Source of the DNA: Prorocentrum cordatum
Lineage: Eukaryota
Assembly: GCA_963575745.1 (NCBI GenBank)
Contig: CAUYUJ010000003.1
Location: 186,001 to 250,000 of the forward strand
Direction: 5' to 3'
DNA: 64,000 nt
This document shows, piece after piece, positions 1-56,570 of this stretch. Position numbers and translations under genes: made by a program. Positions within the stretch are counted from its first letter, which is position 1, and the number at the start of each line of letters is the position of its first letter. The notes under the pieces were generated by a model. That model made no database searches, was not told the DNA's origin, and was given only the letters and a program-made list of their open reading frames with translations.

Positions 1-91
1 CAAGGAGGAGGAGGAGGACGAAAAGGAGGAGGAGAGAAGGGAGGAGGAGGAGGAGAAGGAGGAGGGCTAGTAGGAGAAGGAATCATAAGAT

Positions 92-5590
<5,499 letters not shown>

Positions 5591-5641
5591 CAATACTAAA
5601 TGATGGTCTTCCTGTCGCCGCCGCCAGTAACACATTGGCCC

Positions 5642-6078
5642 CTCGAGGCCCCCATTTTCTCCGGAGCCATCGTTTACGAAGGTGCAGCCTGAGCAACAAC
5701 TGACTGCACGGCCAGCGGGATTCGCTGAGTACCACTCGAGCGAGCATTGAAGCACAGACAGCGGCTTGCAAGAGTGGTGAAGTGCAGCGTGCCCTGCAAA
5801 CAGAAGTGAGGCAGACGGAGGAAGAAAAGAAAAGGAAAGCAGCGCGACTTGAGCCGTCAAGGTTACGGTCAAGTGGCGCCTCAAACGTGCCCCACGACCA
5901 CGCCCTGCAAGTATAATTAGGTCTCTCGAGGCCCCCATTTTCTCCGGCGCCAGCGTTTACGAAGGTGCAGCCTGAGCAGCAACTGACTGCGCGGCCAGCG
6001 AGGCTCGCTGGGTACCACTCGAGCGAGCATTGAAGCACAGACAGCGGCTTGCAAGAGCGGTGAAGTGCAGCGTGCCCT
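5642..6078 (-). repeat. Split direct repeat terminus: 154 bp copies at 5642-5795 and 5925-6078 around a 129 bp spacer
   Basis: Both copies run from ctcgaggcccccattttctccgg to gaagtgcagcgtgccct with scattered substitutions. The inner copy abuts the MTase stop codon. Confidence 0.9.
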
Positions 6079-6790
6079 ATCCTACCTTATGTGCCCTGGC
6101 AATTGTGGCGGCCAGCAGCGAGCAAAGGGAGGGCGGGTAGGGCTCGGCTCGTGTTGTCCAAAAAACACATGTCGGGTCTTCGCCATCGAGCTTCCAGTGG
6201 GGCGGGCGTGTTCTTTGGCAAAGCGTGGTCGCGCATTTCTTAGACATCGTGCTGAGGCCCGGCACGGTGCCAACGATCTTCGTAGCTTGTCGCCACCTCT
6301 CGCCGAACATACAGAGATCACACCGAGCAACTTCAAAATGGAGTTCGGCAGCCAGTTTGATCATTTCGGGGATGGCCCGAATAATACAAGTGAGCGGACT
6401 CTAAATTGAGACAGTGGTGCCATTCTTGATCGCCAGGCGATAAGCACGAATGACGAACGCAATGGAACTTTTGGCAGCAGCTGTCCTGCGGAGGCAATCG
6501 CCTTGCAAGTCTGGGAAACCCCAGGGAAACTCATTCGATCTGAGAGGCGGTGGGCCAGAGCCGCCCAGGCGCCTCGCACGCGACAAGGTCTGACAGGGCA
6601 ATGCGCAATGCACGTGGCAGTAACGGCGCGCCCTGATACCTGTCAGTAACCTACGCTGAGGGCCTCTCTGCGTCAAATCACAAGCAGGCCCATCGAGAAC
6701 CTCCCATCCTTCACACGCGATGCCACTCCTCGCCATCGCCTTGGCTAGCCTCCCAAATCCAACGAAGACCTCGGCCGCTTTCCGTTGAGG
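6077..6790 (-). pseudogene. C5 cytosine DNA methyltransferase (Dnmt-like) domain, inactivated
   Basis: Motif I 'EVFVGFGRL'; catalytic 'LPCQTLSRAR'; motif VI ENP decayed to 'I*SP' (stop at 6401-6403, in frame with ORF 6077..6364); 'DLCMFGERW'; C-terminal 'AEPYPPSLCSLLA'. Confidence 0.85.
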
Positions 6791-7760
6791 CGGCGCCTGC
6801 GGATCGGGGGGAGGTTGAATCCGCCGAAACGTCCATGGAACCAACCGTTGAGGCACCTCACAGCGAGGCGGCTGCACGCCAGAGTCTCTGGCGGAGTCCT
6901 GTTGATCGCCTGCTGCACCTTCCCGAACTTTTCGCATCGACGCACGGAGTTGAAGGTCTTCCAGCCGCCCCGCTTCTGAATGGCAACCAGATCCCGCCTT
7001 TGTAGCATGGCGTCGCGGGAAGCCCCATCCGTGCCGCGCCTGGCGTGTGCACAGCTGCTCGGCGCCCAGCCCCACGATGTCCGTTGCGTCCTCGAACGCC
7101 TCCTTGTATTGGGCGACGGACAAGCGGAAGAGCGGTTCGCTGGGATCGCGGCCCCGCGCCAGCTCCTCCAGGTGGGTCGACAGCTGCGCATCGAAATCCT
7201 CCACCGCCACCGTGTCGTCGAAACTGCCCGCTTTGCGGGGCAGGCCGCGATCCTCTGGCCGCGCCACCAGGCAGAGGCGGCGGTAGCCCTGGAGGCGGGC
7301 CGCAAGGAGGACAAGATCCCCAACTTGGACCTCCGTGGCCTCCCCAGGGCGGGCGTAGGTGTCGTAGGAGGTCAGCAGGCACAGGGCAGCATCCCTCCGC
7401 CGTGTAGCCAGGAGGGCGCCCGCTATAGCAGATAGCTGTCCATTCCCAAGGCAGTCCAAAACGAGAGGCACCTGGAACCGCCTTTCGGAAGCCCTTCGGC
7501 GCCCTCCTCATCCGTGGCAGTGGCAACGCCAGCGGCACAGGGCCCCAATCTCACATGAACTTGATGGCGGCCAGGAGGCGCTCGGCCGTCGCGGCCTCGT
7601 AGCCCTCAAGGTAGAGCGAGTCGAGGTAGTCGACGGCCGCCGCATCCAGCTGCTCGTCGGTGTGCAGCTGAATTCGCTCCCGCGCCGCCCACTTCGAGAA
7701 CTCGTGGTAGCTCTTCCTGCACGAGGCGGCGACCGAGGGTTTCACCGAGGCCTGCTCCGG
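6790..7760 (-). pseudogene. Tyrosine recombinase (phage-integrase fold), frameshifted
   Basis: N-terminal helical domain 'SYHEFSKWAARE...LDAAAVDYLDSLYLEG'; catalytic R in 'TYARPGE'; 'RQARHG/GASRD'; 'RGGWKTFNSVRRCEK' with the expected Tyr replaced by Cys. Confidence 0.9.
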
Positions 7761-8189: not shown

Positions 8190-8405
8190 AGGTTTCGAAC
8201 ATCCTCGAGGGCCCATGAGCATGATTTACTTCGGAAACTACCCAACGCCATTTGAACTTGCAATTGAGAACGACGGTGTAAGTGGCCACACTTCGGCAAC
8301 ACCCCAACATACGGAAGTCCCCACTGCGGCCTTTAAGGAACGCCAAGATGGAGCCCATCGAGTCTCCGAGGATGAGGTGCTTCATGTTGCGGCAGTCCAT
8401 CGGAC
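8190..8405 (-). pseudogene. DIRS-type RNase H C-terminal fragment
   Basis: 'LILGDSMGSILAFLKGRS...KWRWVVSEVNHAHGPSR' matches the DIRS pattern DS...KGRS...WVPSExNxADxPSR. Confidence 0.85.
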
Positions 8406-9765
8406 CGATATAAATTGGAAATCTCTGAGACTCGTGGGTTCTGGAGGACGTATCTATCGCGCACGGCGGCCGTCTCAGAGCATTCCCGAGCGCTCTGAGA
8501 GCGCTCCGGAACGCTCTGGAACGGACTTATCTCGATTCCAGGCCCGTCCGACTCCTAGCATGGGCGCAACGGGTCCTGAGGGAAACGGGTCCTGGACCCC
8601 AGGGCCTCCCCCCAGGACGAGCCTTACGTCCTGAGCCGATTTTTTCTGACGGTCCCGGGGCTCGTGGTGGGCCCCGAGAGCCCGAAGAGGCGAACAACCT
8701 CAGGACCCGTTTCCCTCAGGATCCGCCTCCCACATGGCGAACTCCTCCCTCCCGGCGCCGTGAGATCTGGGGAGATCTCGTGGCCCCGGCCATGATATCC
8801 CCCTCCCCTTCTAGACAAACGCGTTCCACCACTCGCAAAGGAACTGCTTGCAAACGGCCTGGATCCGCCGCAGGTTATCCACGATCCATTACTTCGAGGC
8901 GGGCATGTGTTTCCCGGAGGTTTGTCGGCATGCTGCGAGCGCAGTGAAACGCGCTCGGCCACCTTCGTCGTCATCCCCCTCTTGGCCACGCCCGGTCCTC
9001 TTCTGACAGTTCCGGGGCCCGCGGAGGGCCCCGAGAGCTCGAAAATGGCGAAAAACCTTCGGAGTCGCTTCCCTCGGGACCCGTTTCCCCTGCGGCCCTC
9101 GCCCTCGCGCCTCCCGAGCAGTTTTCCGCGTCTTCGGGGAAGGCTTGGAAAACTTCTCAGAAGGCCAGGGGACTTCCCGACCTTCTGAAAGAGGCCTTCT
9201 CCTTCTCACTTCCCCCCCTCGCTCGCCGCCGATCCTCGCGGCCACCCCCTGGGGAAACCCAAAGGCAACGATACCACTACTCTCCGGACCTCTCCCGGGG
9301 TGCGTTCTGACTCGGATTTCGAGGCGAATCCAGCGGTGGCAACGAGGGCCTTCCAGGAGGCCCAAAAAGGGGAAGACAAGGGAAGGGTAGCAGGTCCCAC
9401 CTCCTCGCGACCGGCCCGAGAGGCCGGTCGGTCCTGCAGACGCCCCAGCCGTGGGGGCCCCGAGGCGCGCGGCGGCGGCGCAGAGGCCGCCCCCGAGCCC
9501 GGCGCGGGGCGCCATGGGTGCCGCGGGGGGCGGGGCGGGCGGCAGGCACAAGTCGTCTTGGAGGTGTGGTACAGTCAAGACCGATCGTAAGGATGCGCGG
9601 TGCGGTCCCAGGCATGGTCGCAACGCAGGTTTCTCGTCGTTTCAGCTTCTCGAGGCCCCCGACGGGCCCTGGGACCCACAGAAAACAACTCAGGATGAGA
9701 GACTGGTCCTTGGGGCAGGGTCGGGAATTCCAGGGGCCGCGTGCTGAAAAATCAAAACGATCGTA

Positions 9766-12792: not shown

Positions 12793-13620
12793 TCCCAATC
12801 ATCCTGTGGTGTTGGGTCCTCGTTTCGAAGAGACAACGCCCCTAGTCCTCATCCTTCCTCCTCCCTCCTCTCACCATTGCCTCTGCTCGCACGCATGTCC
12901 AATTCGGCACACCCTTTCTCTCGGTTCGTCGCACCATAAGGAACTCCACCAAAGACCCCAAAGGCAGTGTCCGCGTGCGCCCACACCGCCCACAGCATGC
13001 CCATTCCGGCACACCCTTGGCACGGTCCGTGGCCCCATAGGGAGCTCCACCGAAGACCCCAGAAGCAGCGTCCGCATGCGCCCACCCCGCCCACCGCATG
13101 CCCATGTCAGCACACACACACACACACATACCTCACATGGTTTTTGGCCCCATAGGGAACTCCTCCGAAGGCCCCAAGTGGTAGCGTTCGCATGCGCCCA
13201 CCCTGCCCACCGGGTGCCAATTTCGGAACACCCCGTATACGGTTCGTCGCCCCATAGGGAACGAACTCCACCGGAGGCCTCCGTGGCATCGTCCGCATGC
13301 GCCCAACCCGCCCACCGCATGTATATTTCGGTAGACCCTCTCACACGGTTCGTGGCCCCATAGGGAGCTTCACCGAACGCCCCAGAGGCAAAATTCCACA
13401 TGCGCCCACCCCGCCCACGGCATGTCCATGTCGGGATACCTTTCACATGGTTCGTGGCCCCATAGGGAGCTTCACCGAAGGCCCTCGTGTCAGGGTTCGC
13501 GCGGTTCGTGGCCCTGTAGGGAGCTCCACCGAAGGCCCCAGCGGCAGCGCCCGCATGCGGCCACCCCGCCCGCCGCATGCCAAATTCGGCACACCCCTGC
13601 CATGGTTCGCGGCCCAGTAG
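12793..13620. repeat. Satellite family A (~90 bp unit) with conserved head; a further unit at ~14150-14280
   Basis: Repeated ggccccatagggagctccaccgaaggcccc...ccgcatgcgcccaccccgcccaccgcatg...cggttcgt. Confidence 0.9.
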
Positions 13621-14289
13621 GGAGTCGGGCCAGAGGCCCAGGCCGCCGGAAGGCTTGAGGAAAGAAGCTGGAGCTATTTGCGGCGCGCACGAAGCGGCGC
13701 AGGAAGGAGGCGACGGCCCCCGCCAGGTAGCTAGGCTTCACCGAGTTTATCCGCGAGGCCGGACCTGGGGAGCTGGACCACCCGAGCAACGCCTTCTTTC
13801 GATTGTCCAACCGCGCCGCGGGCGACCCGCGCGCGTCGCTGGAATCCTCTCGGGGCGACCAGCGCGCGTCGCGGGAGCACCGCGCTGCGCTCTGCCCAGC
13901 GGCCGGAGCCTTGCTCGCTATCAGCCAGCCGGCTAGCTCTCTTCGCTCCGCGCAGCGGACGACCCGCGCGCGTCGCTGGGGCCCTTTCGGAGCGACCGGC
14001 TCGCGTCGCGGGGGCCCCGCGTTGCGCCGCGCCCGCGGCCTTGGACTTTGGGGCGCGCGGGCAGAGAAAAAATGGAAGAAGGGTCATATTGGACTGTCCA
14101 GCTATCCTCGCGCCCACCCGTCGAAAAGACCGCGGACAGGGGGGGGCGCGCCGAGGGCCCCATGGGAAACTCAGCCAAAGGCCCCAGTGGCAGCGCCCGG
14201 GCACCACCGCCATCCCCGTTTGGCACGTCCGCCACGCGCTTCGTGCCCCAATGAGGAGCTCCACCGAAGACGGCGCTCGCGACTGCGGC

Positions 14290-18300: not shown

Positions 18301-19387
18301 GAGCACGCGCGACGCGAATCATCTTCAACGCGCGCGCCAGCCGCGGACCCCAAGAGGCATGGCGCGAAACAGCCGGCGCGACATCCCGTCACTCATGGCA
18401 CGGGCCAACCCGCTCAACAATCTACGCGCCGCTGAAGCCCCAGAAGCTGCAGTCCGTCTCGTTCGGCCCGACGTTGAGCCGACCAAATCCGTCCAGCTCG
18501 CCCTTGGCCCGGGTGGACATGTAGGTGGGCGTGCGGATGAAGAGCTCATTGCCGAAACCGTTGGCGCTGATGTTGAGCTCGCCTGTGCCCTTGTTATGAG
18601 CTCCAGATGTTGGGCAACTGGCGCCCGCGCGCGACGTGAATTGCTTCCGTTGCCGAGCGTCTTCAGGAAGATTGCGATGATGCGAGCGAAGGTTCGCCGA
18701 TTCGCCGCGCGGATCCGCCCGCCAGAGGTTCTGGCCGGCGAACCGCGACGTGAACTCGGTCACGAGAGAGTTGCAGGAGCAGCGGGTCCAGAAGCTCTGA
18801 CTGGTCTCGGCGAACTTTGCCGAGGTGCCGACGAGCGGGCGCGCAAGGGCTTGCCGCTGAGGCGATTGCCGCGTGGCCTGGCGAGAAATGTCCAAGAGGG
18901 TGCGAGGATGCCCGTTCGCCCAGAACCGACATGGATCAGCGCCCGTAGACTCAGCCAGCATCCCGCCAGCCACCCGAGGGCGCTTCGCGCCGTGTCCAGT
19001 GGATCTAGCCGACGATGTAGACGCTTGTAGCGCAGTTTCGGTTTGGGCCTGCCCGGCCTCCAGCTCTTGGAACTGGGCGGCGAGAGCGGCCGTCTGACCA
19101 TCGAGCTGAGCGGTCCGTCAAGTCTGCGTCTTCTTCGCGTCAGCAATCAGCTTGGGGAGGTTTGCCATGGGGCCCGTCGCGACACTTCGAACCACTCGGG
19201 CGCGTCGTCTCCTTTGGCGGCGCAAGATGTGAGGACCAGGGCATGTAGGAGAGATTGAAAGAAATAACCTTCAACCTTGGCATGGCCTCTGGTCGAGGGT
19301 CGCACGGATCGCCCTGGGCCGCTTCGGGCCGCGGCCCCGGGCAGGGCGAAGGCCCCGGGCAACGGCTTGAGCCTATATTAAGACGGC
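15400..19387 (-). mobile_element. Near-complete degenerate LINE (ORF1, APE endonuclease, RT), 3' end missing
   Basis: APE motifs 'SWHARGL', 'VCAQETHG' (~17960), 'ISGDWD', 'SDHAP' (~17370). RT motifs 'PGPDGLP' (~16625), 'MDFAAAF', 'ADCL', 'LKYLGLHIGP' (~15920). Many frameshifts. Confidence 0.88.
19366..19387 (-). other. Degenerate dinoflagellate spliced-leader relic at the LINE 5' end
   Basis: GCCGTCTTAATATAGGCTCAAG versus DCCGTAGCCATTTTGGCTCAAG: 16/22, both ends intact. Confidence 0.5.
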
Positions 19388-21767: not shown

Positions 21768-23560
21768 ATTCTCCGATCCTCCTGCTCTGGGTTCTCGTTT
21801 TGTATGTAACACTGCGGTCGCGACCTCCGCCTTCCGCCCTCCCTCTCCTGTTCCCTCCTGCCTGCCTGCTGGCCTGCCTCCTGTCTCGCCGTCCTGCTCG
21901 GGGGCTCGCTGGGGGGCGGCGAACTGCGAAGCTGTCGCCGTGTTCGAGGGCTGCTGGGGGGTCGAGCGGAGTGACGCCCCTTAGACCTCGCCATCCTTAA
22001 GGGGCTGCGAACCGCGGAACCGTCGCCACTTTCGAGGGCTGCTGGGAGGTTTGGCGAAGTGGCGCCTGGAGTGGCGCATTGTGCAGACCTGCTTTCGACC
22101 TCGCCCCCCCCCCCCCCCCTGGGGGGGGGGCGCAGCTAAATTCTCGCCGCGTTCGATGGCAGCTGGGGATCCCTACGCAGACTTCGATTAGACCTCGCCA
22201 TCCCTCGGAGGTTGCGACCTTCGATCATTTCGCAACGTTCGCGGGCCGATTCGGGGTCCAGCGGGGTGACTTTTTACGCAGATTCAGATTGGACCTCGCC
22301 ATCCCAGGGGGAGCTGCGCACTGCAAAACTGTCGCAACGTTCGAGGGCTGCTAGGAGGTCCAGCGGGGTGCCGCCATCTGCAAGCCCAAGTAGTCCTCGC
22401 CTGTCCTGGAGGACTGCGAACTGTAAAACCGTCGCCATGTTCGAAGACAGCTGGCGGGTCCTGCGGAATGAAGTCTTGCACATTTGCACTATCGTCCTCG
22501 CGATCCGTGGGTGATGGGGCTAACAGCGAAGCTTCCGCCGCTTTCGAGTGCAGCTGGGGTTCCTCAGAGTGGTGTATTACGCAGACCCAGGTTAGACTTC
22601 GCCATCTTTTGTCAGCCTGCGGATCTCGAAACCGTCGACGCCTTCGAAGGCCTGCCGGGGGTCTGGCCGAGTGGCCGCCGCAAAGCGGTCGCCACTGCAA
22701 ACTGCCAGGCTGTCGCCGCCTTCGAGGGCTGCCGGGGCCCAGCGGAACGACGCCTTAAAGCAGACTACTATTGGAGCCGTCGCCCCTGGATGAGTGCGAA
22801 CTGCGAAGCTGTCGCCACATTCGAAGGCAGCTGGGGGGCCCAGCGGAGTGACTACATACCTGCAGGCTGGTTTTAGGCCTCGCCATCCCTGGGGGGGCTG
22901 CGAACTGCTAGTCTTTCGCCGCGTTCGAGGGCTGCTGGGATGTCCAGCGGGATGACGCCTGACGCAGACTTAGACTAGACATCGCCATCCGCGGGAGGGT
23001 GCGAACCAAGAAACCGTCGCAGCGTTCAAGGGCTGCCTGGGTGCCCAGCGGAGCGACATCTTTCGACGACCCCGATTGAACCTCGCCATGCTTGGGGGAG
23101 GGGCTGCGAACTGCGAACCAGTCGGCGCGTTCGAAGGATGCTGGGGGGTCCTACGAAATGACGTCTTGTCGCAGACTCGGATTCGACCTCGCCGTCCCCG
23201 GGGGGGCTGCGCGTTGCGGAGCTGTCGCCACTTTTGGAAAACATGCCCGAGTGTCGGGGGGTTGCGTCAGGCGCGCGGGGCGCATACAAAACATCTCCAT
23301 CCCTGTGGGCTGCGAGCTGCAAGCGCTGCTGGGGCGGGGGTGCAGCGGAGTGGCGTCCTGCGGAGATCCAATCCAGATTTGATCTCGCTATCCCGGTTGG
23401 ATGCGAACTGCGAAACTGTCGCCGCGTTCTTGGTCTGCCGGGGGGGGGGTCAAGCAGAGTGACGCCTTGCGCATATTCAGATTCGACCTCGCCGTCCGCG
23501 GAAATGTCGCCACGTTCGAGGGATGCCGGGGTCCCAACTGAATGGCGTCTCAAAGACTCG
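21768..23560. repeat. Satellite family B (~95 bp unit) with conserved head
   Basis: Repeated gacctcgccatccc...ggggctgcgaactgcgaa(a/g)ctgtcgcc...ttcgagggctgctgggg. Confidence 0.9.
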
Positions 23561-23755
23561 GCGCCTCGACTTCCCGCGGCGCCCCCCGCCATTCCCCGGC
23601 CCCTGCCGCGGCGGGCGAGTGCAGCGCGCGACGGGCGGACATCCAATGCCGCTTGTGCAACAAGTTGGGGTTCCCGAGCTGGCGTCCATAGCCCTGTGGA
23701 CCAACTCCACAGCTGGCAGATCGATGCAAATGTATTGCGCACGTCAAAAAATATG

Positions 23756-25400
23756 TCCCCATCGTCCTGTGGTGGTGGGCCGCCATTTTGAAGAGGCAGC
23801 GCGCCGCGTCCCGCCTCACCATCGTCGCCCCGCGCCTCCTTCCTCTGCCTCTGCTCTCCGCGCGTCAACTGGCGCGGCACCCCATTCGCGCGCTCCGCGG
23901 CCCGATGGGGGGCCCGCCCGAAGACCCCAGCGGCGCAATCCGCAAGGCGTGCCCCGCGCCCGATTCGGCGCACCCCTCGCGCCTTTCGCGGCTTCATAGG
24001 GAGCTCCAGCGAAGGACCCAGCAGCGCAATCCGCATGGCGCACCCGCGCCGAGTCGGGCACGCCCCTCGCGCGCTTCGCGGCTCCATCGGGGGCTCCGCC
24101 GAAGGCCGCGGCGGCGCCGTCCGCATGGCGCGCCCGCGCCCGATTCGGCGAGCCCCTCGCGCGTTTCGTGACCCCGCAAAGAGCTCCACCGAAGGCCCTT
24201 ATGACACTGTCGGCGCGGCGTGCCCGTAGCCGATTTGGCACCCCCCCTGCACCTCTCGTGGCCCCACAGGGAGCTCCACCGAAGGCCCCAGCTGCACCGT
24301 CCGCATGGCGCACCCGCGCCCGCGCGGGCACACCCCTCGCGCGTTTCGCGGCCCCAAAGGGAGCTCCGACGAAGGCGCCAGCGGCGCAGTTTGCATGGCG
24401 CGCCCGCGCCCGATTCGGCGCACGCGGTCCGCGTGGCGCGCCCGTCGCGCGCTTCGCGGCTCGAAAGGAAGCTCCGACGAAGGCCGCAGACGCAGCGTCC
24501 GCACGGGGCACCCGCGCCCGATTCGGCGCGCACCCAGTGCGCTTCGTGGCCCCGCGGGGAACTCCACCAAAAGCGCCGGTGGCAGTCCGGATGGCGCGCG
24601 CGTGCCCAATTCGGCACGTCTCTCGCGCGTTTCACGGCCCCGCAAGAAGCCCCTTCCGAAGACCCCCGCAGCGCAGTCCTCATGGCGCGCCCGCGCCCGA
24701 TCCGGCGCGCCCCTCACGCGTTCTGCGTCCCCGTAGCTCCACCGAAGGCTCCCGCGGCGCAGTCCGCATTGCGACCCCGCTCCTTCTTCGCGCACCAGTT
24801 CACGCGCTTCGCGGAACTAGTAGGGAGCTCGCCCGATAATCCCAGCGACGCAATTCGCGCGGCGCGCCCGCGCCCGACTCGGCGCACTCCTCGCGTGCTT
24901 CGCGGCCCCAGAGGGAGCCCCGGCGAAGACCCCGGCGGCGCAATCCGCGCGGCGCGCCCGCGCTCGATGTGGCGCACCCCTCGCGCGCTTCGCGGCCCCA
25001 AAGGGTGGTGCTCCATCGAAGGCGCCATCGGCGTAATCTGCGCGGCGCGCCCGCGTCTGGCTCGGCGAACGCTTTGCGCGTTTCGCGGCCTCGAAGGGGG
25101 CTTCGACGAAAGCCCCAGCGGCGCAGTCCGCAAGGCGCACCGTCGCCCGATTCGGCGCGCCCCTCGCACGTTCCGCGGCCCCGACGGGTGCTCCGCCGAA
25201 GGCCCCGGAGGCGCAATCCGCATGGCGCGCTCGCGCCCATGGGTCGGCACGCCCCCCGCGCGTTTCGCGGCCCCGCACGGGTGCTCCACCTGAAGCCCCA
25301 GTTGCAGCGCTGGCGCGGCAGCCCCGCCTCATTTCGGCACGCCTTCCCTGCGGTTCCTGGCCCCGTGATCAGATCCACTGAAGGCGGCGCAAACAGCGAA
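23756..25400. repeat. Satellite family A, second array (more GC-rich)
   Basis: Repeated ggcccc...gggagctccaccgaaggcccc...ccgcatggcgcgcccgcgcccgattcggcgcacccctcgcgcg, with the same head as at 12793. Confidence 0.9.
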
Positions 25401-25579
25401 ATACTCACAATTGCATGCGCTCGGGCCCCATCGCCGGGGCAATTTGGATCGCGAAGGTTGGATTTCCATTGCGCGGGGCTGGATGTGCGCGCGTAAAAAC
25501 ATTGGCTGCTGCGAGAAACCGCGAGGGCTGAAGGCTCGAGAAGGCGATGGTAACGACGTCAGATCTGCGACGCATTGCA

Positions 25580-26470
25580 TTTTTTCCCGAGCCCACCCGC
25601 GTTTGGTTCTCGTTTTGGAAAACACTGTGGTACGCTTTCCTTTTCATCGCCCCTCCCCCTCCTCCTATAGGCTGCTCCGCGGGCGGCCGCGAACTGCGCG
25701 ACTGTCGCCGCGTTCGCGGGCCCCCGGAGGGCCCGGCGGAGCACGGGGGCGCGCGCGCCCAGCCGAGACCTCGCAGCGCAGCTCCATGGGCAGCTGCGAA
25801 CTGCGCAACTCTCGCCACTTTCGCGGGTTCCTGAGATGCGCGGCGGCGTAATGGAGCACGCGCCCTCTGCCGAGATCTCGCAACTCCACAGAGGTCTGCG
25901 AAGTGTGCAATTGTCGCCGCGTTCGCGGGTTCCTGGGGGGAGCGGCGGGCTAGGGCGCCCACGCGCACCCGGCCGAAACCTCGCTGTCCCCTGGGGGGGG
26001 GGGGGGGGCGCACTGCGCAACTGTCGCCACTTGCGCGGGCGACGAAGAGCACGTCGGAGCATAGGGGGTACACGCTCCCAGCTGAGACCAGGCAGCTCCC
26101 TGGGGCGCTGCGGACTGCGCAACTGTTGGCACCTTCGTGGGATCCAGAAAGGCGCGGCAGGCTCGCGGAGTGCGCGCGCCAAGCCAAGACCTCGCAACTC
26201 CCTGGATGGCTGCGAACAGCGCAACTGTCGCCATTTTCGTTGGTTCCTGGGCGGCACTGCGGAGTGGGGGAATACGCGCGCCCACCTCGCCGCTCACTGG
26301 GGGACTGCGAACTGCGCAACCGTCGCCACTTTCGCGTGGCCCTGGGATGCACGTCGGAGCATGGGGGGTACGCGCGACCAGCCCAGACCTCGCAGCTTCC
26401 TGCGGGGCTGCGAACTGCCCAACTGTCGCCAAATTTGCCGGGCACGGCTGAGTCAGGAAGTACGCGCGCC
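25580..26470. repeat. Satellite family B, second array
   Basis: gcgaactgcgcaactgtcgcc units. Head 25450-25632 aligns with 21630-21818. Confidence 0.85.
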
Positions 26471-27120: not shown

Positions 27121-29029
27121 ACTCGCCCCGCTCGAAGCCCATTGGACGTATCCCATCCACGCATGACCCATGGCGCGCAGAACTCAGCGCGTCGACGACG
27201 ACGGCGACGCCCTTGCCAATCAAACAAGACGAAGCATCGCCGATGCATCGGCGTCGCATCGCCGATTCCAGGTCGCCTCCTCGGAGCTGCGCGCCCGCAT
27301 CGAGGCGGCCATGGCCTCGAGGATCGAGGTCGCGTCCGTGCTCTTCGCGAAGGACATATTCTAAACGAACATGTGGCACATATATCGCGAGCACATCTGC
27401 CCAGGGCGGGCGCACGGGCACCCGCGCGCCGCGCGCCAAGCGGCGGCGGCGCGGGCCCTGCCCCCCCCCCCCCAGAAGCCTGAGTTCACCGACGCGGGGG
27501 GCGCGCTATGGAGCGCCTGGGGCGCCTGGGAGGCCCCGAGCCGCTGCGGCAGCGACTGGGCTGCGCCTGGAAGCGCCTGGGGGGCGCCGGGGAGTCGCTC
27601 GGGAAAGCCTGGGGGACGCCCGGGGGCGCCTCCGAGCATTCGCCGACGCTGAAGGGCGCGCTCTGGAGCGCCTGGAGCACTTGGAGAAACCTGGAGCCAC
27701 TGTGGCAGCCCCTGGGCCGCGCCTGGAAGCGCTTGGGGGGCGCCTTGGAGGCGCCCGGGCACCGCCCGGGAGCGCAGCGGGCGCATGCGCGCGCAGGCGT
27801 ACACGATGTCGTATCTTTATCACGGATCGCACGGGTTGGGGGCGGCCCTGTGCGCCGCGGAACACTTTTTGCAAGGGGCGCGGGCCGCGTGCGCAGGACA
27901 GCGCGCCTGTTGCAAGGGATTCGGTCCGCACCGCAGAAAACCTTACTTTTTTTTTTCTGCGCGGGAAGTGGGGGCGGATATAACGGGCGGCCGAAGGGGC
28001 GGCTCAAGGGGGCCGAGGGCTTTAATATTTGTAAGCTCTTATTTCTTAAGGCTGTGGGGGTAGGCGCGCAAGGTTCTGGAGCTGGCGGGCGGCGCGGCCA
28101 CGTGGGGGGGGGGCGGCGGGGTCAATGTTCGAATCCAAAGCGGAGCGGGGGGGAGGGCCCCCTCCGTTTTGAAAGGAGGGGGGGGGCCCAGGGCCACGGA
28201 TCGGGCAAATTGGGGGGCCCCGGGGCGACGGATCGGGGAAGGCGGGGGGGGCCCTGACCCCCCCCCCCCCCGGATCTGGCATCCAGCAGCGCGCCCTCCT
28301 GGTTGCCGCGATGCCCAGCAGGAACAAGGAGGACCATGGCTGGCTGACCGTGATGCCGCTGGGGTAGAATGCGAGCGTCGGGAGCTGGAGAACCAGAGCC
28401 GCTTCGAAGACTGCCTGACCGCGCAGCGGATGCCTCGCGACGCAGATCTCTCAGGCGACTACGCCTACCATCTCTCCGTCGATGGCTCGACGGTCAATCG
28501 CGGCCAGAGGGGCCCCCGCGAGTGCTGCGGGAAGCGCATTGATAGCACCGGCCGCGCATTGCGCGCCCACCGATAACCGCAGGCACAGGGCATGTCTCTG
28601 CTTGCCCGCGGCCACGGGGGGAGTGGAAGATGGGGCCTCTGGGCGGCGCGACATGCAATCTAGCAGTGACTTTGGCCGTGGCCTCGGACCGGAGGTGTCC
28701 GTTCGAACCCTGCTGGGAATCGCAGCCGTGACCGAACGTGGCTCGAGCCGAACTTGCCACGGGGAAAAAAACGAACGAGCCCTGGGAGGGGCAAGTCTGG
28801 CGTCTAGCGGCCCTCACCTGCGCCGGCTGCGTCGGGTGGCTCGCGGGGCGGCGCGGGCGGCGCGCTCGCGGCGTAGTTTGCGTTTCGGGGAGAAGAGGGG
28901 GCGCGGTCGGACGGCAGGAAGAAAGGCGCGCGCGAAGGCGAAATGGGGCGTCGGTCGGTCGGTAGGAAAGGAAGGTAGGGCAGCAGCAGGCGGCGGGCCC
29001 GCGCCTCGGCCTCCCTGCGGCGAGGCGCC

Positions 29030-39800: not shown

Positions 39801-40389
39801 CGTCCAAGCTCGGTACCTTGGATTCCGCAATAGCGAGGGCCTGCTTGATGTCATCGGCTGACTGCTTGAGGGAGGAGTTGGCCACGTCTGCTTTGTCCAT
39901 GCGGATCTTGAATGCGATGATGTAGTTTTCTGTGGCGTCTTGACGAGAGGAGAGACTGTCGACTGTCCTCTGCACCTGGGGCAAGAAGGCCCCTTTAGCG
40001 TCATTGCGTTCTTTCTCTGCCGTTGCTTTGAATTTTGTGTTGGCCAGTTGAATATGGGTCTTCAGCAACTGTTGCAACTCGACCTTGGGACAATATGCTT
40101 TGTCCTTGCCGAAACGTTTTGCAACGGCCATAGCAGCAGCGTCGTGCCACGGATCGGCAGTGCGACGTGGCGAGCGGCTTCCTGTGGGTCCGTCTGGCAT
40201 TCCCCAAGTGAGAAGTCACTCAGCAGACACGAAGAAGAGGCCGCGGCACCTCCGAAAAATCCCGCGTGAATATGTAGGGCGGGCAATCGTAAAACACCCT
40301 TTCGGTGGCCTCGGAACAGAGGTCTGCCATGGAACCCTGCGGGCGCTGTGCCCGCCAACGTTGAAATCTTGAGCCAAAATGGCCACGGA
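36817..40389 (-). mobile_element. LINE with SL-defined 5' end, ORF1, partly deleted APE endonuclease and RT
   Basis: ORF1 ~40200-39196 (coiled coil). EN remnants 'MLGDFS' and 'VSDDP'. RT motifs 'APGPDGLP', 'PVAMKNTDAKII', 'QRGYVLGR', 'MDVAAAFPSL', 'GVAQACPVSG', 'CADDLG', 'KYLGVF'. Confidence 0.93.
40368..40389 (-). other. Dinoflagellate spliced leader (dinoSL) genomic copy
   Basis: TCCGTGGCCATTTTGGCTCAAG, 21/22 to the consensus. It is not followed by the GT donor of an SL RNA gene. Confidence 0.95.
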
Positions 40390-45990: not shown

Positions 45991-46740
45991 GCCTAGGCGC
46001 ATAACACTGCCAGAAATCCCCATTTGCATACTGGCACACGTGCACAAGAGGAAGCATGCACAAGCTGAATCCGTCCTCCAGCCTCCTATCATTGGCTAGC
46101 CCCCAATAGCGCCGGAAACGCCGTGCATCAGGGGAGACACCAGCAATCGGAAGCAACGGGCAAGACCCGAGCCTTGGACCAGCGACCGCAATCCCGCCGG
46201 GTAAGGTCGCCCCCTGGCCCTTTCCCCCGGCCAACAGGCGGGGCGGGAGAAGGCCCCACCAGGGTCGGGGTCGGTCCAGTGATGGGCCTACCCATCAAGC
46301 CAACACGGGGCGGTAACCAGCGCCAGAACCTCATCCTAATACGGCAAACGGTGTGCCCGCGGCTAGAAGCATTCCAACCAAGGTGGCTGGAAGTTGAGAG
46401 CCGCGGGCGCCCGCCTCCGCGTCATCATCGGCGGTGCACCTCATGCAGGAAGTGCCACAGGGCGCCCAGGCTGCAGCGCTTGGCCGCGGCAGCAAGGACT
46501 TTACGCATACCTTGGCCGAGCGGCGGCCTACGTGGGAGAAGGAGGAGATGTAGATGTAGGAAGCGAGATGGCTGAGGAAGGGACCAGGATCAGAGAGGCA
46601 AGAAGATGGAGGCCGGAGGAGGAGAATGAGGCCAGAGGGTGATGATGAGGATGAGGAGGACGGAGGAGGAGGAGGAGGAGGAGGAGGAGGAGGAGGAAGA
46701 GGAGGAGGAGGAGGAGGATGAGGAGAACGGAGGAGGGGGA

Positions 46741-49103
46741 GGGCAGCACCCGTAGGGACTTCATGCTACCAGGAAGCATGAACCAGGAGGAGGAGGAGGC
46801 AGGAAAGGGAAGAAAGGAGACAACGGAAAAAGGGAGGAGGAGGAGGACCAGTGTAAACCCAAGAGCCAGCAACAATGTTGGAATACACCCTCCCTCCAAG
46901 CTCCCTCTTCACAGGTCCTTAGAAAGGTTCATTTTCATTTGGGGATCTGCTTCGTTGGAAGACATCCGTTTGAAGACCAAAAGCATGCCAAAATATTGCT
47001 CCCGGGATTCCAACGCCACGGATCAACCTGACTGTTGCGTCTTGACAACCATGGATCGTGCCGGAAAACCGTTCTCGGAATTTCAACACCGCGAACCAGT
47101 GTAATCCGTGCACCAGCAAAATCCATAATCTTTCCAACACACCTTTTCTGGTACGCTGATCTTGGGAATCCGCAATCCTTTTGTACAATGTATGAACGAA
47201 TGTGCGCGGCGCTAAAGCGAGAACCACATTTTGAAAAGAAACTGCCCTCAATCCGTGAAGCTCTTGCAAATGTTGAAAACGAATGTGCGCGGTGCTAAGG
47301 CGAGAACCACATTTTGAAAACGGGTGGTCCTGCATCCGTGAAGCCCTGCAATTCTTGAGAACGAATGTGCGCGGCGCTGAGGCGAGAGCCACATTTTGAA
47401 AACGGCCCGCCCTCCATCTGTGAAGCTGTTTCCAATGTTCAGGCTTCAGGGTCATAAAGGGTGAAGAAGTCTCAGGCGAAACGCCCGGCCCGCCCTAAAA
47501 ACTGGCCTCGGGGTGCAACAGGGAGAAGTTATTCATAAGCAAAATAATGGAGGAGGAGAAGGAGGAGGAGGGTAAGGATGATGATAATGATGATGATGAT
47601 GATGAGGAGGAGGAGGAAGAGGAGAAGGGGAGGAGGAGCAGGATAGGGAAGAGAATCAGAGCATCCCGCTGTCGCTCGGACGTCCATTCCCCGTGCATGT
47701 TTCACTTTCGTGCGTGTGTTTCCGCGATGATCCAAGGCGCTCCTCGATGGTTTTCACAGAGAAAAAACTGCACACGCACGAGCGGCTGTCAAGGGGAAGA
47801 CGCCTGGCGTGGAACGCAGCCGAACGCGAGCGCCACTGGACGGGGCGGCGCGGCGAGCATCGGGGGCTCGGGGGCGAAGCCTCGCCGCTCGCCTCGCCGC
47901 CGGCGAGGTTGCCTCGCTCGTGGGGGGGGGGTCGGGCCAGTTGCGGGTGGGGAGGCATCGCGGGGAGAGCCGGGTTGCCAGACTTCCTCCTCCCTCCAGC
48001 CTCCATCCCTCCCTCCTTCCCTCCTCCCTCGTCCACCCGCCCTCCCTCCGCCTCCTCCTCCTCCTCCTCCTCCTCCTTCGTCCGTCCTTCTCCCTCTTTC
48101 TCGCCTCTCCTCCTCCTTCGTTTTCCCTCCTCCCTCTTCCTCCTCAGTCCTCACTCCCTCCTCCTCCTCCTCCTCCTCCACTTCCTCCTCCTTTCTCCTC
48201 CTCCTCCTCCTCCATTCCTCTTCCTCCTCCTCCTCTTCCTCCCTCCTCCTCCTCCTCCTCTTCCTCCTCCTCCTCCTCCTCTTCCTCCTCCTCCTCCTCT
48301 TCCGCCTCCTTCTCCCTCCTCCCTCTTCCTCCTCCATTCCGCACCCCGAGGCGGGTTGAAAGGGTGGGCCAGGCATTTCGCCTGAGACTTCCTTACCATT
48401 TATGACCCTGAAGCTAAAACATAGCAGCCGTTTCACATTTTGAGGGCGGCTCGTTTTCAACATGTGGCTCTCTCCTAGGCGCCGCGCACATTCGTTGTCA
48501 ACATTCGCAAGATTTTTACGGATTGACTTCGGGTCGTTTTCAACACGTGGCTCTCGCCTCAGCGCCGCGTACATTCTTTTTAAACGTGTGCAAGCGCTTC
48601 ACGGATCGAGGGCGGCTCCTTTTCAAAATGTGGCTCTCGCCTAAGCGCCGCGCGCATTGCTGTCAATCAAATGCAAGAATTTCAAGGATTCCCATGAGCA
48701 ACGTACCAGAGATGGTGCGTTGGAAAGACTCAGGATTATGAGGGCGCAACAGTTACGTCGATTCGCGGTGTTGGATTCCCAGGAACGGCGTTCTGGCGCA
48801 ACTCAGGATCGTCAAGACGCAACAGCCAGGTTGACCCGTGGCGTTGGAGTTCCGAGAATCATGTTTGGGAACGCTTTATGCTCTTCAAACGGTTGTCTTC
48901 CAACGAGGCAGCTCCCTCAGTGGAAATGAGCCGTTGTAGGGTGTAGGGACCTGTGAAGAGGGAGCTTGGAGGGAGGGTTTATTCCAAGATCGTTGATGAC
49001 TCTTGGGTTTACACTGGTCCTCCTTTTCCTCCTATTTCCTCCTCCTCCTCCTCCTCCTGGTTCCTGGTTCCTGATGGCATGAGGTCCCTGCGGGTGCTGC
49101 CCC
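46741..49103. repeat. Large inverted repeat (arms 46741-47516 and 48341-49103)
   Basis: Anchors such as gaccagtgtaaacccaagag, ccctccctccaagctccctcttcacaggtcc and cttcagggtcataaa...aagtctcaggcgaaa recur as reverse complements in mirrored order. Confidence 0.92.
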
Positions 49104-49425
49104 CCTCCTCCTCGTCCTCCTCCTCCTCCTCCTCCGTCCTTCCCTCCTTCTCTCCCGCACTTCTCGAGCGGCCGCCATGTCGGTCGGGCCGCTCGCCCTG
49201 CAGGAGATCCCCCGCTGGGGGCGCTCCGAGGCTGGTCCTCGCGGCTGCGCTCCCTGTGGCCGGCGCGGGGAAGCAACTGCTCAGGGAGAGGTCCCCCAGC
49301 TGATGGGCCAGTCTTTTACCACTACTATCATAGGTTAGTTAGGACGGGGGAGAAGGGAGGATTGGGAGGTTGTCCTCCTCCTCCTCCTCCTCCTCCTCCC
49401 TTTCCTACCTATGGTAGCGGTTTAA

Positions 49426-50554: not shown

Positions 50555-50576
50555 CCCGGAGCCTGTTTGGCTCAAG
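50555..50576 (+). other. Degenerate dinoSL relic
   Basis: CCCGGAGCCTGTTTGGCTCAAG, 18/22. A second GGCTCAAG follows ~45 bp downstream. Confidence 0.65.
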
Positions 50577-54429: not shown

Positions 54430-56570
54430 CATCTCCTCCCGCCGAGCCGCAGTCGTGGCCACCGCACTCCCCGGCGCTGCCCTCGAGGCAGCTGCCACTG
54501 CGAACGCGTGCTCTTCTCGCGCGCGCTGTTCAGGGTGCCGAACATGATGGTGTTGGGCTCCATCGTCATGTCTGCCGTCTCGCTCAGCAGCACCACAGTC
54601 TGCTGCCGCTGCCAACGCCTGCTCTTCTCGCACGTGCTGCACAGGGCGTCGTAGGTGGTGATGCTGGGCTCCAGCTTCACGTCTGCCATCTCGCTCAGCA
54701 GCGCCATGCCTGCTGCCTCTGGCAACGCCTGCTCCTCTCGCACTCGCTGTTGCACGACGTAGGCGATGGTACTGAGCTCCAGCCGCGCGCCCAACATCAC
54801 GCTCAGCGACGCCACCAACTGCTACCGCTGGCAACGCCTGCTCTCCTCGCAAGCCTGGTCAGGATGCTGTGAGGGAGGGTGCTGGGCTCCCGCTTCGCGA
54901 TCCTCATCTGGCTCAGCAAGGCCGCGACATGCTGCCCCAGCTAACGTCTGTTCATCTCGCATCGCTGTGCACAGTGCCGTAGGTGCTGATGCTGGGCTCC
55001 AGCTTCACCATTGTCATGTCGTTCAGCAGCACCGCGGGTTGCCGTCAAAACCGACGCCTGCTTTTCTCGCAAGCGTTGTGCACAGTGACGGAGGTCATGT
55101 TGGCGGGTTCCAGCTTCGCGACTACAATCCCGCTCAGCAGCGCCACTGACCACTGCCACTGCCGCAGCCTGCTCCTCTCGCACGCGCACGAGAACGCCGT
55201 GGGCGAGGATGTTGGGCTCCAGCTGCATGGCCACCCTCTCGCCCGGCGACGCCACCGACTGCCGCTGACAACGCCTGCCTTCCTCGCGCGACCTGCGCAG
55301 GATGCCGTAGGTGATGGTGCTGGTCTCCAGCTTCGCGAACACCATCTGGCTCAGCAGCGCCACGACCTGCTGCCGCTGCCAACGACTGCTCTTCTCGCGC
55401 TCGCTGTGCAGGGCGCCGTAGGTGATGTTGCTGGGCCCCAGTTTCGACCCAGATCTCGCTCAGCAGCGCCGCAACCTGCGGCCACTGCCAACGCCTGCTC
55501 TTCCCGCGCGCGCTGATCACAGTGCACGTGGGGGACGCTGCTGAACCCCAACTTCGCGTCCAGGAACTCGCTCCGCAGCGCCGCGTCGCGCTGCCAACGC
55601 CAGCGCCTGCTCTTCTCGCACGTGGTCTTCACAGGGGCGCAGGTAATGATCATGTCGGGCTCCAGCTTCGCGATGCCGTCTCGTTCGGCAGTGCCGCGAC
55701 GCGCCGCCGCTTCTTGCGCCTGCTCTTCCCGCACGCGCTGTTCACAGTGCCGTAGGTGATGATGTTGGCGGGCTCCAGCTTCGCGACCACCAACTCGCTC
55801 GGCAGCGCCACTGCCCACTGTCACTGCCAACGCCTGCTCCTCTCGCGCGCCCGATGAGGGCGCCGTAGGTGAGGATGTTGGGCTCCAGCAGCATGACCGC
55901 CAATTCGTTCGGCGACGCAACCAACTGCTGCCGCTGGCAACGCCTGATCGTCTCGCACTACCTGTTCAGGGTGCCGTAGGTGATGGCGTTGGTGATGGTG
56001 CTGGCAACGCCTGCTTTTCTCGCGCGCGCTGCTCACACTGCCGTAGGTGGTGATGACGGGCTCCGGCTTCCCGACCACGATCTCGCCCCGCATCGCTACT
56101 GCTGGCTGCCACTGCCAGCGCCTGCTTTTGTCGCGCGCCATGCTCGCAGCGCCGCAGGTGAATGTGCCGGGCGCGGCTTCGGGGGCAGGACATCGCCCAG
56201 CAGCGCCTCGAACCGCTGCGATTTCCAGAGCCTGCTCTTCTCGCGCTCGCTGCTCGGGGCGCAGTGGGTGAAGATGTTGGTCTCCAGCTACGCGACCCGG
56301 ATCTTGCTCAGCAGAGCCACGGCCTGCTGTCACTGTTAACACCTGCACTTCTCGCACGTGCAGGTAAGGTGAAGCTCCCGGGCTCCAGCGTCGCGTCCCG
56401 GGCCTCGCTCCGCAGCGCCACGACGCGCTGCCACTGCCAAAACCTGCTCTTCTCACGCGCGCTGTTCACAGGGACGTGGGCGATGGTGATGTCGGCCTCC
56501 AGCAGAGCGGCTGCCGACTCATTCAACAATGTCGCACTGATGAAGGTGGTCGGCTCCAGCCGCATTCTCC
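54430..56570 (-). pseudogene. Decayed pentatricopeptide repeat (PPR) array, roughly 20 units
   Basis: ~35-37 aa units, consensus about LEPNIITYGALxSAREKSRRWQWQxxVALLSEMxxAK, in shifting frames. Confidence 0.9.

Follow-up and report, generated by a model that had tools for sequence, protein, structure and literature searches.

The truncated element and its complete relatives

The window, by which the whole 64-kb stretch analysed is meant (G000:C3:186001-250000, part of the 4.1-Gb host genome), carries on its minus strand a 5'-truncated copy of a retroelement, of whose repeats only B1, A2 and B2 are left and whose reverse transcriptase (RT) is missing. Two direct repeats of 154 bp, B2 at 5642-5795, which is the 3' terminus of the element, and B1 at 5925-6078, are 94% identical; the first-pass annotation of this DNA had already described the pair and the 129-bp spacer between them. 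The same annotation held that the spacer duplicates the 5' terminal repeat, which is right for the ~81 bp that form repeat A2 (5917-5837), but not for the pyrimidine-rich remainder. The repeat A nearest to this A2, present in L002 and in the sister element L012, is 89% identical to it over 80 bp; it forms a 5' terminus, behind which come ORF1 and RT. The polypyrimidine tract is present as had been noticed (5836-5796), it forms a unique spacer, U, between A2 and B2, and comparison with complete relatives places it outside A1.

The coding part that is left begins with a remnant of the region after RT (8206-8391), RNase H-like by position when set against intact relatives, continues with a tyrosine-recombinase-like region (6766-7460) that is frameshifted, and ends with a C5-cytosine-methyltransferase-like region (6080-6790) that has one stop codon and an approximate 5' limit, recognised from intact relatives and an Atlas match. 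The minus strand from 8392 to 6073 is 72% identical to intact relatives over 2.3 kb and the similarity ends at 8392; no repeat A1 of this copy was found within the 64-kb window and Pfam returned nothing relevant for 14 window ORFs. Adjoining the truncation point is a short palindromic repeat (8470-8551) that is also found beside another element copy, L008, and so belongs to a different repeat. Other repeats in the window are a long degenerate (TAG)n array (1-5595) lying ~45 bp beyond B2, degenerate tandem arrays with units of ~90-110 bp (12925-14270, 21900-26460 and 54458-56500) and a large nested set of inverted repeats with arms of up to 192 nt (46640-49110).

Complete relatives are found in the same genome. 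A motif-based pattern gave 41 matches, 32 of which form 16 pairs ~6.05 kb apart, and the paired matches are the A1 and A2 of complete elements of the order A1-ORFs-B1-A2-U-B2 in which repeat A is 82 bp long. A first set of regions, 40 picked from 151 methyltransferase matches together with four earlier ones, gave both repeat pairs in 36 of 44, and for a second architecture 20 regions were picked from 150 matches with A1 and A2 resolved in 16; the 8/44 and 4/20 regions without a resolved repeat set were dropped before counts were made. The complete relatives have the split-direct-repeat structure A1-ORFs-B1-A2-B2 (PAT/Ngaro-type), and two domain orders coexist amongst them, RT-RH-YR-DNMT and, in architecture 2, RT-DNMT-RH then YR.

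The tyrosine recombinase profile PF00589 matches the intact relative L011 with an E value of 0.002 and 18.4 bits, below the cut-off of 27.1, and the window region is 69-73% identical to L011. Pfam gave no match for RT and RNase H in the intact relative, and these domains are presumed from a YCD motif and from position in its 1233-aa ORF. It has been described that RTs of the SymbioDIRS-Dnmt3 kind align poorly to Pfam (PMC5890265). The last domain of the intact relative has an Atlas match of 0.96 to a cluster named DNA (cytosine-5-)-methyltransferase, and methyltransferase motifs are conserved (PC in 12/12 rows, ENP in 11/12 rows), with no match to the region in Pfam and nothing relevant from a PDB search made with an alignment. 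Among the viral contigs searched there was no relative of the element. By its domains and repeat structure the element, a putative split-direct-repeat, DNMT-bearing member of the DIRS type, fits SymbioDIRS-Dnmt3 (de Mendoza et al. 2018, PMC5890265), for which the same A-coding-B-A-B repeats, cytosine methyltransferase domain and two domain orders are reported, along with the RT and tyrosine recombinase that are putative here, but the main text of that paper contains no repeat sequence and no description of a unique spacer.

Further features of the copies were noted in passing. Many of L011-L018 and L109-L147 sit in (GAT)n or (AT)n repeats with an ATG/ATT-like junction, and repeat B (L109-L147, L260-L278) usually begins in or just after a G-rich stretch, possibly a site of plus-strand priming. 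The metagenome contig L149, whose identity to the L011 family is 92%, has the methyltransferase followed by A and then ORF1, which may be a collapsed assembly or a circle-like junction.

The leader-like end of repeat A

Within the window A2 a 22-mer (5869-5848) agrees with the DinoSL leader at 17 of 22 positions, as had been claimed, the leader sequence used for all comparisons being that given in PMC5585692. It is the only site with at least 14 matches in the 129-bp spacer, and 17 matches were reached by 7 of 20,000 base shuffles. Such a match is not decisive by itself and needs support from relatives, as there are three sites of at least 17/22 in the 64-kb window and the perfect 21-base core of DinoSL occurs 15,271 times in the host genome (reversed control 0), a count that marks the host as a dinoflagellate. 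The other leader-like sites of the window are 40368-40389 (minus strand, 21/22), 50555-50576 (plus, 18/22), 28742-28763 (minus, 16/22) and 19366-19387 (minus, 16/22), the first two of which come after CT-rich runs and look like the 5' ends of retrocopies. That the motif is an SL RNA gene was considered and rejected, as it matches at only 17/22 and has no exact leader with a donor site and SL RNA intron; an Rfam search of 5550-6300 with E up to 10 gave no match.

Support from relatives does exist. The 36 resolved elements of the first set fall with the window copy into 11 clusters, between which neither B nor the 5' part of A aligns, and an alignment of the leader to A beats dinucleotide shuffles (no more than 25/2000) in 8 of the 11, the exceptions being L109, L129 and L130. 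The comparison was carried to 13 families, ten from the first set and three of architecture 2, all from the host genome and with the window standing for the L011 cluster; their RTs are 25-63% identical among the first-set families and 20-28% between the two architectures. In 12 of the 13 families, which share ancestry, the final 28 nt of A contain a stretch that agrees with leader bases 15-22 at 6 or more of 8 positions, against a mean of 0.97 and a maximum of 5 in 5000 shuffles, the 28-nt span having been set, as was the 20-nt window used below, after the data were seen. Just 3 of 65,536 8-mers do as well at the 3' end of A, all of them overlapping pieces of the leader 3' end. The families of architecture 2 match bases 15-22 at only 5-6 of 8.

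It is apparent that the motif is a real and deeply conserved fixed part of terminal repeat A, since its region is found in both A1 and A2 of 52 complete relatives, distant families among them, and the second architecture carries the same repeat-A end; the first-pass annotation was right in this, and its expectation that the spacer would recur at the 5' ends of complete elements holds for the part in repeat A that carries the motif and fails for the pyrimidine tract. Its description of a captured SL stands in so far as the similarity goes beyond chance, but overstates the match, as the part conserved is the last 6-8 bases of the leader (7-8 in the window), often with CCG upstream, whilst the middle of the 22-mer varies. 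Where CCGTA is kept the next base is A or T in the seven host-genome rows listed and never the G of the leader. A perfect leader was found in none of 52 A1 copies.

The conserved end closes with an AG, which in the window lies at 5849-5848 and which from its position across the 13 families is a predicted trans-splice acceptor in A1 copies. In all 13 families the distance from this AG to the end of A is 3-13 nt, after which A1 and A2 are no longer identical. In 12 of these related families the 20 nt upstream of it, in a window chosen post hoc, are free of AG, when random upstream windows contain AG in a mean of 9.3 and shuffles of the same 20 nt give a P of 0.0016. Architecture 2 apparently has a tandem pair of leader relicts, with the AG preceded by a pyrimidine-rich run, and in two of its three families the word that comes after the AG recurs in LINE-like elements of the host genome, behind the perfect leaders at their 5' ends.

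Relatives from metagenomes were examined in 15 loci with a B1-B2 pair, 65 of 80 loci having been left out and L193/L194 and L171/L174 being near duplicates among the 15. Exact CTCAAG lies between B1 and B2 in nine of these fifteen (0.5 expected) and is missing from six, and in the nine it is followed within ~15 nt by a C-rich run. In one contig that has both A copies, repeat A stops 5 nt beyond the AG.

A possible role in trans-splicing and template switching

The first-pass annotation had looked for a captured acceptor at the other end of the spacer, in the pyrimidine tract and the TTTGCAG at its junction with B2. In Trypanosoma cruzi the element SIRE reportedly supplies an SL acceptor. SIRE is the A2-spacer-B2 unit of VIPER according to PMC6681497. 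Pyrimidines make up 64-100% of U in all 44 elements compared, each of which has a lower purine fraction in the 20 nt after A2 than after A1 (mean 0.18 vs 0.57), and a CAG or TAG stands at the junction in some families. A terminus-bound acceptor at this place is nevertheless barely credible and not supported, because U follows A2 and never A1, because just 17 of 44 elements (0/8 in architecture 2) have an AG close to the junction and because that of the window (5795-5794) belongs to repeat B, whose two opening bases it forms in B1 as well. Features like those of an acceptor are located at the AG that closes the motif.

A joint reading of the two copies of the motif is proposed, which from the sequences compared has about an even chance of being right: trans-splicing would use the AG in A1 as its acceptor, and homology for a template switch would come from the leader-like bases of A2. 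The host would splice its leader onto the element RNA at the AG in A1, it being known that genomic leader copies serve as acceptors at their AGs (PMC3229502), and the trans-spliced RNA would then keep the leader and only 3-13 nt of A. So short a stretch would not allow a template switch if A2 did not resemble the leader 3' end. The terminus would be rebuilt from the internal B1-A2 copy by pairing of the RNA 5' end, or its cDNA, with A2, and as the rebuilding would need this pairing A2 may have been selected to resemble the leader 3' end. That the leader, as RNA primer or as cDNA copy, pairs with the mimic in the internal repeat, so that trans-splicing sets the boundary of the repeat and drives strand transfer, is held with somewhat less than even confidence.

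How the switch would proceed is constrained by A1. A plain jump of the minus strand from the capped end is excluded, as it would put a perfect leader in A1, where there is none, and A1 is no more leader-like than A2 (7 vs 6, with 33 identical and two rows mis-anchored). With no perfect leader in A1, the switch, a speculative step, would have to take place among the final bases of the leader or by way of the plus strand from B1-A2; in the latter case the plus strand may halt at the C-rich spacer and move to the end of the minus strand. A2 carries the same closing AG as A1, which would cut the full-length RNA unless silenced, and U, itself no acceptor, would likely either silence it or mark the stop of the plus strand.

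Several points count against the joint reading, among them the AG of A2, the three clusters without a significant leader alignment, the weaker match of architecture 2 and the six metagenome spacers that lack CTCAAG. The motif AG of the window subfamily is predicted to lie within a stable hairpin (5839-5882, z -3.46, 0/200 shuffles), and in A1 copies there is a second AG 6-22 nt downstream of the motif AG that is a rival acceptor. Pattern searches of the host genome that covered part of the families and downstream AGs found no perfect leader joined to a DIRS copy. A set of 18 leader-junction matches at first looked like DIRS junctions and was rejected, none agreeing at the DNA level behind the leader with the DIRS elements compared; the 16 that were followed for up to 9.9 kb lacked a DIRS ORF on the strand concerned, and two that were tested are LINE-like. 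Many of 30 perfect-leader loci examined begin right after a microsatellite. A set of LINE-like repeats of 7-8 kb with endonuclease, RT or RNase H matches (L297-L312, e.g. L298-L300 and L302-L304) starts with a perfect leader and then a decayed relict and adjoins CCT-type repeats, with L298-L300 being 99% identical over 7.8 kb.

Other explanations of the motif have to be weighed against the joint reading. It is possible, though unlikely, that the element acquired a leader a single time, from an ancestral RNA that had been trans-spliced, and that this leader was kept only as an acceptor, with no role in template switching and with a copy in A2 because A1 is copied from A2. A relict of this kind would agree with the position of the AG and the AG-free stretch upstream, with the tandem relicts and pyrimidine-rich run of architecture 2 and with an A1 that lacks a perfect leader, and relict leaders are described as acceptors in retrogenes (PMC3229502). 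Ordinary relicts decay, however, by the same account, yet leader bases 16-22 are kept here at RT identities down to 25%, when an AG alone would suffice for an acceptor, and why the identity of A1 and A2 should end 3-13 nt after that AG is left unexplained. Rather improbable is a motif that is a site of binding or priming without any acceptor, at which a leader fragment left by RNase H would pair with the minus-strand A2 and prime the plus strand, or at which the RNA would start, the motif being an encoded mimic. Plus-strand priming by a capped RNA fragment is known from hepadnaviruses. Conservation is strongest at the leader 3' end, as it would be for a primer, no perfect leader would be expected in the DNA if the primer were RNA, and the primer of DIRS reverse transcription is given as unknown in PMC7192593; two families, on the other hand, have changed the base two before the last G of the motif, which would weaken the primer end, and the AG-free stretch is not predicted by priming.

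It is very improbable that the word is a signal particular to the element, be it a hairpin or a site for recombinase or RT, with a likeness to the leader that arose by chance. The conserved core of just 6-8 bases and the strong hairpin that surrounds the motif in the window subfamily would suit such a signal, but the hairpin is not common to the families and had to be rejected as a general explanation, the three best shared 8-mers are all pieces of the leader, and different families retain different further parts of it.

Comparison with known systems and meaning for the element

Degenerate copies of the leader in DNA, with an AG able to act as acceptor, are already known as the relict DinoSLs of retrogenes (PMC5585692, PMC3229502), which are described as lying at the 5' end of the retrocopy, losing their first 7 bases and decaying, with TTT(T/G) kept according to Song et al. 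(PMC5585692/PMC3229502). In contrast the motif here is at least 50 bases inside a terminal repeat (~50 in the nearest families) rather than at a retrocopy 5' junction, it is duplicated in A2, and it keeps the 3' end, often with CCG, whilst losing the T run and the internal AG. VIPER/SIRE of Trypanosoma cruzi (PMC6681497, PMC12278014) is likewise a split-direct-repeat YR retrotransposon in a host with SL trans-splicing, and VIPER has a unique spacer of ~30 bp between A2 and B2 (PMC6681497), but it is of another clade and without methyltransferase, and neither account, in the text available, speaks of a leader look-alike in its repeat A, the word 'leader' having 0 occurrences in PMC6681497. The RNA of DIRS-1 of Dictyostelium also lacks most of the terminal sequence, and an internal copy serves to restore it, although DIRS-1 has inverted repeats and an internal complementary region and is given no link to trans-splicing in PMC7192593.

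Whilst the class of element is already known, a conserved leader mimic in its repeat A was not found described in the literature searched. A search for a leader-like motif in DIRS-type repeats found none, with most subscription papers outside its coverage; 'spliced leader' is absent from the main text of PMC5890265 and 'leader' from three of its supplements, the main supplementary PDF lying outside coverage, and the 2024 review PMC11453091 makes no mention of 'DIRS' in its available text.

Elements with terminal repeats need homology between the 5' end of their RNA and an internal or 3' copy, and it is this 5' end that SL trans-splicing replaces. With a leader mimic anchored at the inner edge of repeat A, they would have a way round the replacement. 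The motif gives exact bases at which the priming and template-switch steps of split-direct-repeat YR retrotransposons can be probed, and it is a short signature for locating the ends of these elements in dinoflagellate genomes. If the leader does act as a working part of replication, it would represent a general solution for retroelements that have terminal repeats and live in a host where every mRNA receives a new 5' end.
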